A program made the position numbers and the translations under genes. Of a DNA stretch of 64,000 bases, positions 45,551 to 49,833 are shown piece by piece. The first letter of the stretch is position 1. Every line of letters begins with the position of its first letter. Source of the stretch: Candidatus Nitrosopelagicus sp. (lineage in GTDB: Archaea > Thermoproteota > Nitrososphaeria > Nitrososphaerales > Nitrosopumilaceae); the NCBI GenBank assembly GCA_028343435.1, contig JAOLYM010000001.1, forward strand, positions 40,525-104,524. Reading direction: 5' to 3'. A model generated the notes under the pieces. It did not search any database, was not told where the DNA came from, and saw only the letters and a list, made by a program, of their open reading frames with translations.

Positions 45551-46018
45551 ATGAGCATTATGATAGAAGAAGGAAAAGCAGTACCAAAATTTCAATTACA
45601 AGATGCAGATGGTAATATGATCAAATCATCTCAACTCAAAGGAAAAAAATTTGTTGTTTATTTTTATCCAAGAGATTTTACACCAGGATGCACAACCGAG
45701 GCAGATGAATTTTCTAAAGATTATAAAAAATTTCAAAAAGCCGGAATTGAAATTATTGGAATTAGTAAAGATGATGTTACATCACATAGAAAATTTTGTG
45801 ATAAAATGAACATACCTTACATTTTACTTGCAGATGTTGAGACAGAAGTTTGTAAAAAGTTTGGCGTATGGGGATTAAAAAAATTCATGGGACGAGAGTT
45901 TATGGGAATTAATCGTAGTACATTTCTAGTAAATGAAAAAGGAAAAATTTTCAAGGTTTTTCCTAAAGTAAAACCAAAGGGACATTCAAAGGAAGTCCTA
46001 GAAGCTTTTCAAAAATAA
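45551..46018 (+). CDS. bcp: Bcp/PrxQ peroxiredoxin
   Basis: YFYPRDFTPGCTTE, RSTFL. Confidence 0.92.
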   Translation: MSIMIEEGKAVPKFQLQDADGNMIKSSQLKGKKFVVYFYPRDFTPGCTTEADEFSKDYKKFQKAGIEIIGISKDDVTSHRKFCDKMNIPYILLADVETEVCKKFGVWGLKKFMGREFMGINRSTFLVNEKGKIFKVFPKVKPKGHSKEVLEAFQK

Positions 46019-46040: not shown

Positions 46041-46931
46041 TTAATGTCCAGTGTTTGCTTTTGCACCTGCAGGTCCCCAACCTTTTGGCATTGAGCCTCG
46101 GTTAGATTGTGCGGCTGCGGTTGCTGCTGCTTCTGCGGCAGCTGCTTCTGCTGCTGCTTTTGCATCATCAACTTTTTTCTGTTCTAGACGTACCAAGTAT
46201 TCTTTCTCATAATCTTCAAGTTCTTGCTGCTTTGATTTTCCATCAGATGCACTTCCAGCACTAGCCTGAACTTCAGGTTGTGGAGGTGGTGGAGGTGGTG
46301 GAGCAGATTTTGCTTGTCCACTTGCCGGAGCATCATTTATCCAAGTACCAAATTTTTTGGCTTCTGGGTGATATGCAAGTCTTTGTCTTGTTGCAAAGTA
46401 CTTGTTTCCTGGTGCTGTGTAACCAGTGATTTTTGTTTTTTGATCATTCCAGTTGGATGGTGTAACTTCAGTTTGCGCTACAAGAGCTCTGCTACCAAAG
46501 TATCTGTTGCTCGGTGCAGTGAAACCAGTGATTGCAACTTTTTGTGTGTTCCAGTTTCCTGTTGGAATTTCACGGAATCTTTCGTGAAGTGGAACTGAAG
46601 GTGCTTTCTCTGCAGGCTTTGGTGGTGCCTTGTCTGCAGGCTTTTCATCATGTCCGTGTGGACCGCCACCGCCTTCTGGTTTTTTAACTTCTGCTGGTTT
46701 TGGTTTTGGTGCAGTTTCTGCTGGTTTTGGAGCTGGTTTTGGAGCTAGTTTTGGAGCTGGTTTTGATTCAGCACCTGCTGCAAGACCTGATAATCGCTTT
46801 TCTAATTGAGCAATCTTTGCTTCTAAATCAGCTTTTGTTGTTCTTGAAGATGTTGTTTTACGTTTTGTTGTTGTTTTACGTTTTGTTGTTGTTTTACGTT
46901 TTGTTGTTGTACGCTTTTTCGATGTCGCCAT
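46041..46931 (-). CDS. Modular low-complexity protein, AKANTGH family member A (296 aa)
   Basis: KRKTTT basic repeats, coiled coil, P/A/K/E linker, GPHGHDEKP, two NWN..K..ITG.TAP.N.YF repeats, PKGW...AKANTGH. Confidence 0.85.
   Translation of the reverse strand: MATSKKRTTTKRKTTTKRKTTTKRKTTSSRTTKADLEAKIAQLEKRLSGLAAGAESKPAPKLAPKPAPKPAETAPKPKPAEVKKPEGGGGPHGHDEKPADKAPPKPAEKAPSVPLHERFREIPTGNWNTQKVAITGFTAPSNRYFGSRALVAQTEVTPSNWNDQKTKITGYTAPGNKYFATRQRLAYHPEAKKFGTWINDAPASGQAKSAPPPPPPPQPEVQASAGSASDGKSKQQELEDYEKEYLVRLEQKKVDDAKAAAEAAAAEAAATAAAQSNRGSMPKGWGPAGAKANTGH
46338..46590. repeat. About 253-bp dispersed repeat, second copy at 48591-48843 (shared core of members A and D)
   Basis: Near-identical LHERFREIPTGNWN...KKFGTWI coding segments. 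Confidence 0.9.
46851..46910. repeat. 18-bp tandem repeat, about 3.3 copies (encodes TTTKRK)
   Basis: TGTTGTTTTACGTTTTGT repeated at 46851, 46869, 46887. Confidence 0.9.
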
Positions 46932-47053
46932 TGGTGGAATAGGGAATTAGTTGCTTATGTGCATTTTGTAACGGTATAAAATTTTTGCAAAAAAATAAAC
47001 AAAAATATGTAAAAATTTGAAAAAAGGAGTTGTAAAAAGGAGTATAGATTTTC

Positions 47054-47608
47054 TTATATTCCCATTTCAGATTTAAGCTGAGTGCACCAATTCTTTACTC
47101 GTTCGGCTGTAAGATCTCCTTCGCTGTCTTCATCAACAGGTAGTCCACAAAACTTCTCACCGTCTTCTGGTGGTGTTATTTCATTTAGATGTGGAATTAA
47201 ACATCTTGAATGAGTAAAGTTTTCGTAGCCATCTAGACTTACATATCCGACCATTTTTGCACCTGCTTTTTCGAAATATCTGTGTAGTTCTTCCATTGCA
47301 TCGACATAGTCTTCGCCGTAACCAACAGAGTCACCTAAACCAAATACTGCGACCGGCTTACCTTTGAGATCTAATTCACCTATTTTTTCTAATAGTTCAT
47401 CCCAAGCAGTTCCAGATCTTAATTCTTCGGCTCCAGTATTCCAAGTAGGAATGCCACATATGAGACCATCAAGGCCGGCAAAGTCTGCCAAATCGCCTTC
47501 GGTAACATCTTTGGCAGCTGCTACTGCATCTCCTAGTTCTTCTGTTATTATACCACAAACGGTTTCTGTTTTACCAGTTTGGGTACCAAAATATAGTCCG
47601 ATTGTCAT
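47054..47608 (-). CDS. fldA: Long-chain flavodoxin, cyanobacterial IsiB-like
   Basis: GTQTGKTE phosphate loop, GIPTWNTG, FGLGDS..Y...YVDAM, FCGLPVDED; ATG at 47608 with TTAAATA about 21 nt upstream. Confidence 0.92.
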   Translation of the reverse strand: MTIGLYFGTQTGKTETVCGIITEELGDAVAAAKDVTEGDLADFAGLDGLICGIPTWNTGAEELRSGTAWDELLEKIGELDLKGKPVAVFGLGDSVGYGEDYVDAMEELHRYFEKAGAKMVGYVSLDGYENFTHSRCLIPHLNEITPPEDGEKFCGLPVDEDSEGDLTAERVKNWCTQLKSEMGI

Positions 47609-47660
47609 TAAAAAATTTCCCACCCCATTATATTTAATTCATACTAATTTGGTAGATCAA

Positions 47661-47762
47661 AGAAAAATAAAAGAAAAAAAGAAATTTAGAATTTACACTA
47701 ATGATTAGTGTCCTGTGTTTGCTTTTGCATCTTTGATGAATCCTTTTGGTAAGGTTGCGCCT
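47661..47762. repeat. About 100-bp direct repeat, copy 1 of 3 (others about 47961-48062 and 48291-48392), covering the family 3' end and terminator
   Basis: A-rich tract + TAGAATTTACACTAATGATTAGTGTCCTGTGTTTGCTTTTGC...CCTTTTGGTAAGGTTGCGCC in all three. Confidence 0.92.
47695..47711 (-). terminator. 17-bp palindrome ACACTAATGATTAGTGT overlapping His-stop codons, followed by oligo-T; identical at 47993-48009 and 48323-48339
   Basis: Perfect 8-bp inverted arms with 1-nt centre; T-rich tract follows on the minus strand. Confidence 0.6.
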
Positions 47763-47872
47763 TTTTTCTTCATTTCTTCAGCATAATCGTCTTTAGCTGC
47801 ATCGGCTTCTGCCTTCTTTTTCTTTGCATCTTCTGCATCTGGTTTTTCATCATGTGCGTGTGGACCAGCCAT
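47705..47872 (-). CDS. AKANTGH family member B (55 aa)
   Basis: Hand translation MAGPHAHDEKPDAEDAKKKKAEADAAKDDYAEEMKKKGATLPKGFIKDAKANTGH; ATAAATA box about 24 nt upstream. Confidence 0.85.
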   Translation of the reverse strand: MAGPHAHDEKPDAEDAKKKKAEADAAKDDYAEEMKKKGATLPKGFIKDAKANTGH

Positions 47873-48002
47873 AAGATGGTCAGTGTCATGGTTGTTTATT
47901 TATGTAATGATATTGAGATTTTTTCAATAAATTAGACAGTTTTAGAAGAAAATTCAAGAAAATAGAAATAAAAAAAGAAAGTTCTAGAATTTACACTAAT
48001 GA

Positions 48003-48161
48003 TTAGTGTCCTGTGTTTGCTTTTGCGTCAGAAATGAAACCTTTTGGTAAGGTTGCGCCTTTCTTTCTCATTTTTTCAATATATTCTGCTTTAGCTTTAT
48101 CAGCAGCATCTTGTTTTTTCTTTGCTTCTTCTGCTACTGTAGCTTTTTTTGATTTTGCCAA
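48003..48161 (-). CDS. AKANTGH family member C (52 aa)
   Basis: Hand translation (TTG)AKSKKATVAEEAKKKQDAADKAKAEYIEKMRKKGATLPKGFISDAKANTGH; TTAAATA about 22 nt upstream. Confidence 0.8.
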   Translation of the reverse strand: MAKSKKATVAEEAKKKQDAADKAKAEYIEKMRKKGATLPKGFISDAKANTGH

Positions 48162-48332
48162 TTCCTTTGATCACAGATATGGATATTTAATTAACATGTT
48201 AATTTCAAAAGTTAGTTTTAGAATCTAATTACAAAATTTTAGAGTGTGATAGTATGAGAAATAGGATAAAATGTAATTAACAGTTTAAAGAAAATAAAAG
48301 AAAAAAGAATGTTCTAGAATTTACACTAATGA

Positions 48333-49127
48333 TTAGTGTCCTGTGTTTGCTTTTGCATCTTTGATGAAACCTTTTGGTAAGGTTGCGCCTTTAGCCTTCA
48401 TTTTTGCAGCATATGCATCTTGAGCTTCTTGTGATTTCCAATCTGCCCCTTTAGCATCTACCTTTTTTGGTTTAGCTTCTGCTTTTTTAGCTTCTGCTGG
48501 TTTTTCATCATGTCCATGTGGACCACCTGCTTCTGCCTTTTTGGCTTCTGCTGGTTTTGGTTTTTCTGCTTGTGGTGCAGGAGTATCTTTTATCCAAGTA
48601 CCAAACTTTTTGGCTTCTGGATGATATGCAAGTCTTTGTTTTGTTGCAAAGTACTTGTTTCCTGGTGCGGTGTACCCAGTGATTTTTGTTTTGTGATCAT
48701 TCCAGTTGGATGGTGAAACTTCAACTTGTGCTACAAGAGCTCTGCTACCAAAGTATCGGTTACCAGGTGCAGTGAAACCAGTGATTGCAACTTTTTGTGT
48801 GTTCCAGTTTCCTGTTGGAATTTCACGGAATCTTTCGTGAAGTTCGGTTGATGCTGGAGGTGCTTTCTCAGCTGGTTTTGGTGCAGTTTCTGCTGGTTTT
48901 GGTTTTGCAGTTTCTGCTGGTTTTGGTTCCGGTGCAGTTTCTGCTGGTTTTGGTTTTGCAGTTTCTGCCGGCTTTGTTTCAGCTGGTTTAGGAGCTACCT
49001 CAGCAGGTTTTGCTTCCTGTGCTGCGGCTAATTTATTTAATTTTGCTTCTAAATCAGCAATTTTGGCTTCTAGATCTTTTTTTGATGTTGTAGACTTCTT
49101 TTTTGTTGTCTTTTTTGCTGTAGCCAT
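48333..49127 (-). CDS. Modular low-complexity protein, AKANTGH family member D (264 aa)
   Basis: Basic N-terminus, DLEAKIADLEAKL coil, KPAET repeats, shared core, GPHGHDEKP, GATLPKGFIKDAKANTGH. Confidence 0.87.
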   Translation of the reverse strand: MATAKKTTKKKSTTSKKDLEAKIADLEAKLNKLAAAQEAKPAEVAPKPAETKPAETAKPKPAETAPEPKPAETAKPKPAETAPKPAEKAPPASTELHERFREIPTGNWNTQKVAITGFTAPGNRYFGSRALVAQVEVSPSNWNDHKTKITGYTAPGNKYFATKQRLAYHPEAKKFGTWIKDTPAPQAEKPKPAEAKKAEAGGPHGHDEKPAEAKKAEAKPKKVDAKGADWKSQEAQDAYAAKMKAKGATLPKGFIKDAKANTGH

Positions 49128-49132
49128 AATTT

Positions 49133-49148
49133 CACCTCATTTGAGGTG
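49133..49148. promoter_or_regulatory. Palindrome CACCTCA-TT-TGAGGTG between TATA-like box and start of member D
   Basis: Perfect 7-bp arms; one arm is the SD-like GAGGTG 5 nt before the ATG. Confidence 0.5.
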
Positions 49149-49222: not shown

Positions 49223-49600
49223 ATGGATGATTTCGAAAAAGAATATCCGGATTTTGATTGGAAGAATACTCCAGCCTATAAACACCCAGGTGGGAAAAAC
49301 TGTCCATGTCCAAAACACGAATACATTAGAGAACAGATCAACTTTGCAAAACAGGTCAACGAAGCAGGATCTGATGCTGCACGTGTGACACTCAAATTTT
49401 GTCCAGATCATTATCAAGTTTACATCAAAGAGGTCATTCCAGCAATGCCACTAAAGTATAAGATTCTCACAAAAATTGCACTGAAAATTGGTGCAATACA
49501 GATCGAGCATCTAACACACATGCAATCAGATTTGTGTTTTTACTGTAAATTTGGTTCAGGTGGACATGGAAGAAAAAGTGAACTTCCACCTATGCCTTAA
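49223..49600 (+). CDS. Cys/His-containing hypothetical protein
   Basis: CPCPKH, FCPDH, CFYC motifs. Confidence 0.65.
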   Translation: MDDFEKEYPDFDWKNTPAYKHPGGKNCPCPKHEYIREQINFAKQVNEAGSDAARVTLKFCPDHYQVYIKEVIPAMPLKYKILTKIALKIGAIQIEHLTHMQSDLCFYCKFGSGGHGRKSELPPMP

Positions 49601-49833
49601 TTTATTGGACTAATTCTAATTTTTGGTCTGTGCGGAGTATCATGATGACATTTCTCTCCGCATATTGGGCACATTTTTCTATCAAGGAATATGCATTGGC
49701 AAATGTGTGATTTCATATAACTTTCAGCAGCAGTAGAATTTTCACCAGTTCCATTACAGAAGGGACATTGAGAATCAATTAATTCAATTGTTCCAGCACC
49801 CTTGCAAACTCCACAAATGTCCGAATCAGTCAC
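49597..49833 (-). CDS. Small protein with DnaJ-type CxxCxGxG Zn finger plus second Cys/His cluster
   Basis: CGVCKGAG, CPFCNGTG, HICQC...CPIC..CHH. Confidence 0.72.
   Translation of the reverse strand: MTDSDICGVCKGAGTIELIDSQCPFCNGTGENSTAAESYMKSHICQCIFLDRKMCPICGEKCHHDTPHRPKIRISPIN

Follow-up and report, generated by a model that had tools for sequence, protein, structure and literature searches.

Archaea of the family Nitrosopumilaceae drive much of marine nitrification. The organization of proteins around hubs by short docking motifs is familiar from eukaryotes and from organelles that fix CO2, and in the pyrenoid the protein EPYC1 reportedly acts as a repetitive, multivalent linker. In Chlamydomonas, one short Rubisco-binding motif is described on otherwise unrelated proteins, membrane-linked ones included, and is proposed to target them to the pyrenoid hub (Meyer et al., 2020, PMC7673724). 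Here we describe a gene family, four members of which (genes A to D) lie on the minus strand of a 64,000-nucleotide stretch of a Candidatus Nitrosopelagicus sp. genome (assembly GCA_028343435.1, contig JAOLYM010000001.1, positions 40,525 to 104,524; hereafter the window), and whose products carry a short motif that also forms residues 2-7 of AmoX, an accessory subunit of archaeal ammonia monooxygenase (AMO). Like the pyrenoid system, it combines a short, often terminal motif on several non-homologous proteins with a low-complexity linker bearing several copies (one to six in 114 family proteins); it differs in having an archaeal host and a hub that is still putative, and in placing the motif on an enzyme subunit, AmoX. 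The algal motif is presumably unrelated in sequence, and the likeness is one of analogy.

The family also compares with the AMO accessory subunits AmoX, AmoY and AmoZ, as these are described by Hodgskiss et al. (2023, PMC10030591): it is likewise restricted to ammonia oxidizers and abundant, and it shares AmoX residues 2-7. Subunits AmoD to AmoH are reported in a preprint (bioRxiv 10.64898/2026.08.31.748207), and in composition the conserved core of the family fits the verbal description of AmoH given there. Unlike AMO subunits, the family lies outside the amo cluster, is soluble and is limited to one archaeal family, and no member was found in the species from soil and hot springs on which complexome studies were done. 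The literature searched, including the accessible parts of PMC10030591 and PMC13058606 (subscription papers and several supplements being beyond reach), describes neither the motif, nor a function for the family, nor the identity of AmoH. What we propose would be a form of motif-based docking in archaea that is tied concretely to AMO and is undescribed for ammonia oxidizers in that literature. The motif shared with AmoX gives a direct handle on archaeal AMO assembly, arraying, electron supply and regulation; a regular expression for it lists clients, the AmoH density gets a named candidate, and a propagated "trans-sialidase" label is corrected.

Results and Discussion

A Tail Motif Shared with AmoX

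The four open reading frames (ORFs) were present at the sizes given by an earlier, sequence-only reading of this DNA (A, 264; B, 52; C, 55; D, 296 amino acids), and all end in AKANTGH-stop preceded by TLPKGF (A to C) or SMPKGW (D). That reading had taken AKANTGH as invariant and as a docking, targeting or processing signal. In relatives it varies: of the 120 top-ranking homologues of A, 82 have AKANTGH, 32 AKAAGAH and 6 other endings, the terminal histidine being present in both named forms. The deep family motif is (T/S)(L/M)PKG(F/W/Y). A conserved, selected terminal motif, reused on unrelated proteins, does exist, but the wrong part of the tail had been chosen for it: PKGF is kept in relatives, whereas AKANTGH is a local, subclade add-on, and the signal had been misplaced by ten residues. 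The docking idea itself fits the constraint on the tail codons, the RNA contigs over A, C and D, and the reuse of the motif on unrelated proteins.

The comparison set consisted of 40 genomes of Nitrosopumilaceae (family f1, to which the window belongs) and 160 genomes from 19 other families of the order. From 129 core-bearing ORFs, 15 were dropped as incomplete or as having no heptad; each of the 114 distinct complete proteins that were left carries one to six copies of the motif, and 102 of them stop at the motif or within 3 residues past it. GTLPKGF is the C-terminus of 82 and AKANTGH of 12. Genes A to D encode one copy each, a fifth family member on contig C23 three, and P0225 ten, against the six at most in the complete chains. 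G(T/S)LPKG(F/Y) followed by a stop was found in 31/40 Nitrosopumilaceae genomes and in 0/160 others, and its reversed control in 0/40 and in 2 genomes elsewhere. Within the window the motif pattern was seen 3 times against 0.03 expected (100 shuffles). A looser pattern, scanned over 15 genomes, drowned in chance matches, and in viral contigs the 5 motif-plus-stop matches included none in a reading frame of at least 30 amino acids ending on the motif; no relative of the core was found in those contigs.

A scan of the 3838 ORFs of the genome with the pattern [TSA][LM]P[KE][GN][FWM] returned only A to D, the C23 member and the gene for AmoX, a 120-aa membrane protein encoded between amoC and amoA (G000:C2:2744-3106) that starts MTLPKGF and continues with a Gly/Ser linker. 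The genome carries amoA, amoB and amoC; the first two are assigned by sequence likeness and position, and AmoC matches AMO subunit C models weakly. By chance, TLPKGF would be expected 0.011 times in 251,692 residues and 4e-5 times at residues 2-7 of any ORF, both being post hoc calculations. The amoX gene was found in 40/40 genomes of Nitrosopumilaceae, 38/40 of family f15, 9/9 of f4 and 10/11 of f9, and in no other family. We take f15 to be the soil family Nitrososphaeraceae because one of its proteins is named Nitrosocosmicus. At 50 amoX loci (the 30 best-scoring and 20 chosen), AmoX carries the motif in 43: all 32 from Nitrosopumilaceae, all 11 from f15 and none of the 7 from f4 and f9. The linker behind the motif varies in length; the motif does not. 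A start codon followed directly by the motif occurs in every one of the 40 Nitrosopumilaceae genomes exactly once, at the start of amoX, as well as in 36/40 f15 genomes, in none of f4 and f9, and in 5/100 genomes of the other families.

Selection, Transcription and Protein Abundance

The ratio of non-synonymous to synonymous polymorphism (pN/pS) in the tail codons was 0.07 over 23 distinct tails, and the tails of A and the unlinked C23 gene differ by 7 synonymous and 0 non-synonymous changes. For B (6 orthologues) the ratio was 0.31 over the whole gene, 0.07 in the tail and 0.45 outside it, and for C (10 orthologues) 0.27, 0.00 and 0.38; in all these estimates the pairs are not independent. 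All four ORFs are real and under purifying selection, the two microproteins included.

In assembled marine RNA from four runs of four studies, contigs covered A, D and the neighbouring flavodoxin gene in 4/4 runs, C in 3/4 and B in 1/4, while three intergenic bins had no cover in any run; such contigs show presence rather than level, and for B DNA carry-over is possible. These data also bear on whether B and C could be debris of the 3' end of A, left by neutral duplication or gene conversion. A, B and C share DNA past the stop codon, and B and C are patchy among relatives, one genome (G006) having neither; their pN/pS values, their own TATA-like boxes and starts, which are kept across orthologues, and the RNA cover of C nonetheless make this origin very improbable.

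In the Nitrosopumilus maritimus proteome of PMC12974425, Nmar_0559 has 102-213 spectral counts over 28 samples, beside 158-236 for AmoB; it is labelled trans-sialidase and adjoins Nmar_0560, labelled BCP. Nmar_0559 is likely the N. maritimus orthologue of gene D, a tie made by label and by position beside BCP rather than by sequence.

A Proposed Docking System

On balance we lean towards the view that A to D, through their AmoX-type motif, dock on the same cytoplasmic receptor as AmoX and so gather with AMO at the membrane's inner face. The motif would act as a short linear motif, independent of its position in the chain and recognized by a single pocket. N-terminal heptads would oligomerize A and D and, with one to six motifs per chain, make them multivalent cross-linkers, the core adding a further module, longer than the motif, that would fold once bound. 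B and C, with a single motif and neither core nor coiled coil, would cap or compete, and the IKDAKANTGH extension together with GPHxHD would be a subclade addition, possibly metal-binding. The putative receptor may be a separate hub or else a site on AMO itself, in which case trimers would be cross-linked in arrays. The family core is probably not the receptor, since f15 has the motif on AmoX and no core was detected there; the DUF3892 domain that begins the C23 member is a possible candidate.

Several observations weigh against this view. No receptor for the motif was found. AmoX is without the motif at all 7 f4 and f9 loci, and AMO catalysis therefore does not need it. Among the 5 genomes of amoX-less families with a start codon plus motif, one instance is a genuine start, in frame, of the gene for an aldehyde ferredoxin oxidoreductase (L342), and the reversed control of that pattern turned up in 3/40 Nitrosopumilaceae genomes. 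LPxG(F/W) is a common turn-strand element, with in-domain copies in L139, L202 and L218, and the genomes are kin, so that the tallies are not independent events. The family genes are unlinked to the amo cluster (contig C1 versus C2), and B had RNA cover in just one run. In the data of PMC12974425, the abundance of Nmar_0559 follows that of a PII protein (Spearman 0.81) and of a ferredoxin (0.79) more closely than that of AmoB (0.52), AmoC (0.47) or AmoA (-0.11), in a comparison of 11 hand-picked proteins; co-abundance thus does not single out AMO.

Other Bearers of the Motif

Outside the family, four unrelated membrane-type proteins of Nitrosopumilaceae end on or just past the motif (L110, L173, L220, L225) and two carry it internally (L187, L194). 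In f15, proteins that start with it comprise the charged repeat rods L147, L158, L372 and L380, the zinc-ribbon protein L219, and L371 and L375. The rods, L371 and L375 share a plan of motif start, charged repeats and amphipathic helices at the end. Those helical ends presumably resemble phasins; Pfam gave only DUF2795, for L375. Links of these proteins to storage granules are possible. The L220 protein (L220:2148-3521; also L173) has 457 aa, a predicted export signal, one membrane helix and a cytoplasmic tail that ends just past SMPKGW, and its cluster has 600 members; a protein of this type could tie the hub to the cell envelope.

Such a range of clients, from membrane proteins to rods, a zinc-ribbon protein and presumably phasin-like proteins, together with the absence of gene linkage and the weak co-abundance with AMO, favours a general-purpose signal (a site for a protease or chaperone adaptor or for a prolyl isomerase, or a short membrane-lipid anchor) for which AmoX would be one client with no special tie to AMO. 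We regard this as rather unlikely. The sole start-plus-motif of each Nitrosopumilaceae genome is that of amoX, the near-invariant T-L-P-K-G-F and its many copies per chain fit avidity for a defined pocket better than they fit a degron or a lipid anchor, and a protein of AmoB-like abundance would be an improbable multi-degron substrate.

The Conserved Core and AmoH

The core profile matched 36/40 Nitrosopumilaceae genomes and 0/160 genomes of the other 19 families. Among 7999 candidates scored, 1319 were homologues of A at E<=0.001, and C had 85 homologues of 30-97 aa. Source names of family proteins include Nitrosopelagicus, Nitrosopumilus, Nitrosarchaeum and Nitrosotalea, with P0137 named for N. 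maritimus, and the labels are mostly "trans-sialidase" or hypothetical. The former is wrong, since no sialidase domain was found: Pfam and NCBIfam gave no sialidase (GH33) or BNR match for A to D or P0137. Compared with Trypanosoma trans-sialidase, the likeness lies in P/A/K/E-rich tandem repeats only, from which the label presumably arose; the family proteins are too short and, on inspection of the translations, lack an export signal and the hydrophobic stretch that a surface anchor would need. Indeed the claim that none of the four has a signal peptide or membrane helix held, by the same inspection, with no hydrophobic stretch in A to D. No paper was found that combines "trans-sialidase" with "Nitrosopumilus", no main text mentions Nmar_0556-0561 or six T478_048x tags, the locus tags were not found in two supplements of PMC11153153, and the main text of an N. 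brevis co-expression preprint does not name genes of this family. The "sialidase" passages of PMC12448741 concern other, soil-strain genes, and the "LPKGF" literature matches listed were all coronavirus epitopes, a coincidence.

In the alignment, conservation falls on a short heptad, on the core, on an acidic helix that the long paralogues have, and on the PKG motif. What A and D share is as the sequence-only reading had described: an 84-aa core, found to be 94% identical, P/A/K/E spacers, the DLEAKIA-LE heptad and a basic N-terminus, here rich in K/R/T. The core is rich in invariant W/Y/F/G/N; in L226, L227 and several representatives, a unit of some 30 residues is all that is left of it. One membrane-type protein, P0281, also combines the reduced unit with a TLPKGF tail; core unit and tail are both able to move onto other proteins. 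A profile search of 1.84 billion representatives gave 110 matches, of which 27 were inspected; these comprised family members and fragments of them, P0281, and chance matches to long repetitive sequences. Searches of Protein Data Bank (PDB) sequences with AmoX and the core profile found no match below E 0.6, and the ESM Atlas gave no usable match for the core or for the 70-aa protein discussed below. AlphaFold2 monomer models of the core had a mean predicted local distance difference test (pLDDT) score of 49.7 with 41 sequences and 53.1 with 76, giving no confident fold and uninformative models; low values of this kind may fit folding on binding and prove nothing.

In the preprint (bioRxiv 10.64898/2026.08.31.748207; PDB 9XJ2), AmoH of N. 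maritimus is an unassigned, loop-rich, cytoplasmic, propeller-shaped trimer, modelled as poly-Ala apart from a small number of large side chains, and a C3 density under the central lipids that touches the C-termini of AmoC, AmoF and AmoG; its main text contains neither "sialidase" nor "PKGF". It is possible, though on the unlikely side, that the conserved core is AmoH, three cores from a coiled-coil trimer folding onto the cytoplasmic base of the AMO trimer while flexible arms display extra AmoX-type motifs. Such an identity would be compatible with the docking system proposed above and more specific than it. Inspection of the sequence places the core in the cytoplasm; it has the invariant W/Y/F/G/N residues noted above, is restricted to the family of N. 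maritimus and takes no confident fold alone, and Nmar_0559 is AmoB-like in abundance. Averaging of the two imperfect repeats of the core at a single site could account for side chains that cannot be read. The K/R-h-x-x-h-E pattern of the heptad is a putative trimer motif, and we infer the oligomeric state of A's predicted coiled coil. Set against these points are the modest co-abundance with AMO subunits, the competition of other small conserved proteins, and the presence of Nmar_0559 in UniProt, through which the authors of the preprint could have tested it. A complex prediction of three AmoC with three cores scored 0.00 in two runs (mark 0.32), controls not having been folded and the partner fold being uncertain; it speaks neither for nor against binding.

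A bolder, and doubtful, extension would unite these elements: the peptide motif of AmoX and many unrelated proteins as an address code for one hub, the family of marine lineages as AmoH, the eighth AMO subunit, its trimeric core plugging the cytoplasmic base of AMO, and its disordered arms cross-linking AMO arrays into a pyrenoid-like compartment tuned by tag-only microproteins. If true, an address code TLPKG(F/Y/W) would organize the nitrifying machinery of mesophilic ammonia-oxidizing archaea.

A rival candidate for AmoH, or else a candidate electron-transfer accessory, is a 70-aa protein (G000:C5:10791-11003; L417:3792-4004) whose gene lies immediately upstream of one for a 100-aa ferredoxin, with complex III genes nearby. 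It was found in 39/40 genomes of Nitrosopumilaceae, 9/9 of f4, 10/11 of f9 and 40/40 of f15 and in 0/100 others, the same four families as AmoX, and neither Pfam nor NCBIfam had a matching family for it or its relatives (L382-L416). Copies read in Nitrosopumilaceae and f9, and many in f15, are without the motif, whereas L382-L399, all f15 relatives, are extended at the N-terminus by MT(L/M)PKG(F/Y) plus a short linker; the tag looks to have been gained secondarily by an f15 paralogue. The UniProt entry that follows ferredoxin Nmar_1537, A9A4Y0, may be this protein; its spectral counts are 14-59.

Locus Architecture and Gene Content

Features of the locus are collected in Table 1. The earlier picture of an adjacent array of four tandem genes needs amending, as a long-chain flavodoxin gene interrupts it between C and D, and the four are not the full set. 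The fifth tail-bearing gene (G000:C23:57984-60272; L026, also L222) encodes 762 aa, with an N-terminal DUF3892 domain, three exact TLPKGF copies, two GGPHAHD repeats and long, acidic repeats of coiled-coil type. It is followed by a gene for a stand-alone DUF3892 protein of 103 aa, both lying within G000:C23:57984-60639. At loci read far enough, the family lies between the 125-aa gene and the BCP peroxiredoxin gene, usually with one or two paralogues and with four in G108. Gene D is the positional orthologue of the single ancestral-type gene (39% identity to L053:1108-2100 over 312 columns).

Table 1. Features of the locus and its flanks (window coordinates).
Feature	Position	Strand	Description
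BCP peroxiredoxin gene	45551-46018	plus	Conserved downstream flank
Gene D	46041-46931	minus	296 aa; long paralogue adjoining BCP peroxiredoxin; LEDYEKEYL helix; SMPKGW + extension
SMPKGW in D	46077-46094	minus	Motif variant
Core of D	46338-46589	minus	94% identical to core of A
Long-chain flavodoxin FldA	47054-47608	minus	Between C and D, outside the family; PF00258, NF006738, TIGR01752
Copy of 17-bp inverted repeat at C	47695-47711		Spans stop codon
Gene C	47705-47872	minus	Microprotein, 55 aa; GPHAHD, charged helix, tail
TLPKGF in C	47738-47755	minus	Motif
Copy of 17-bp inverted repeat at B	47993-48009		Spans stop codon
Gene B	48003-48161	minus	Microprotein, 52 aa; TTG start; charged helix + tail
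TLPKGF in B	48036-48053	minus	Motif
17-bp inverted repeat at A	48323-48339		Across stop codon of A, then T-rich tract
Gene A	48333-49127	minus	264 aa; basic N-terminus, short coiled coil, P/A/K/E spacer, core, GPHGHD, helix, TLPKGF, IKDAKANTGH extension
TLPKGF in A	48366-48383	minus	Motif; same as AmoX residues 2-7
Core of A	48588-48842	minus	85 aa; two imperfect repeats of about 31 aa, rich in W/Y/F/G/P/N/T
Coiled coil of A	49023-49079	minus	Predicted, two-heptad, DLEAKIADLEAKLNKL type; column block kept in 26 aligned orthologues
125-aa Cys/His-rich hypothetical	49223-49600	plus	Conserved upstream flank

The basic N-termini had suggested tethering to the nucleoid, the N-terminus binding DNA and the tail acting as an anchor. 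A and D do have K/R/T-rich N-terminal repeats, and the basic segment reaches about 70 residues in L012-L014; in these repeats and in their PAK-type spacers they resemble the histone-H1-like basic proteins Hc1/Hc2 and AlgP. The segment is not conserved across the family, however, ranging from a few to about 70 residues among orthologues and mostly limited, outside the genus of the window (g1), to a few basic residues ahead of the heptad. B, C and the C23 protein are without it, and no H1-like Pfam family and no Hc1/Hc2 family matched. Nucleoid association is thus poorly supported, and we hold it to be improbable.

The flavodoxin scored 206.4 against NF006738 (cut-off 172) and 155.8 against TIGR01752 (146.75). 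FldA-type flavodoxin occurs in just 10/151 genomes of the family and is strongly present in the four marine RNA runs, which suggests patchy acquisition for low-iron water. In the g1 loci read, the extension, GPHxHD and the inserted flavodoxin occur together, perhaps through a single event. One could see metal-scavenging His peptides here, GPHxHD and the terminal histidine binding Cu, Ni or Zn and the flavodoxin cluster being a low-metal adaptation. Eight g1 loci (G000, G001, G006, G010, G016, G018, G023, G189) have both the flavodoxin in the array and the extension, five others (G002, G003, G005, G020, G021) have no flavodoxin between the flanks, end at the motif and lack GPHxHD, and the terminal histidine is kept in AKANTGH and AKAAGAH alike. 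The extension is nevertheless missing from 102/114 family proteins, and its co-occurrence with flavodoxin may be one ancestral event; as an account of the family this is quite unlikely, though it may hold for the extension alone.

TATA-like boxes had been noted for B, C and D. They lie at -29 in B, -31 in C and about -50 in D, but A has one too, at about -29; all were called by eye and are weak evidence in A+T-rich DNA. A sigma-70 promoter scan, with a model ill-suited to archaea, was at chance level. The 17-bp inverted repeat has 3 copies in the genome, all at this locus and each with a T-rich tract behind it, and as an RNA hairpin it is not significant against shuffled sequences (z -0.1 to -0.6). 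Where the tail has a TAG stop, other short palindromes lie at the equivalent place (L317, L323, L340).

Other microprotein types occupy the same slot in relatives (L229:4013-4243, L022:497-727, L006:2916-3113), among them 76-aa proteins in which the motif is degenerate and the chain ends in GNTGH, and one of 65 aa; from these further types, tail-only genes turn over quickly. The 125-aa Cys/His-rich gene is strongly conserved next to the family at the loci read. Convergent with it is a 78-aa, Cys-rich, zinc-finger-like ORF (49597-49833, minus strand), and neither had a Pfam match above cut-off. Immediately upstream of A, an inverted repeat (49133-49148) includes the ribosome-binding-like sequence GAGGTG, which it could mask.

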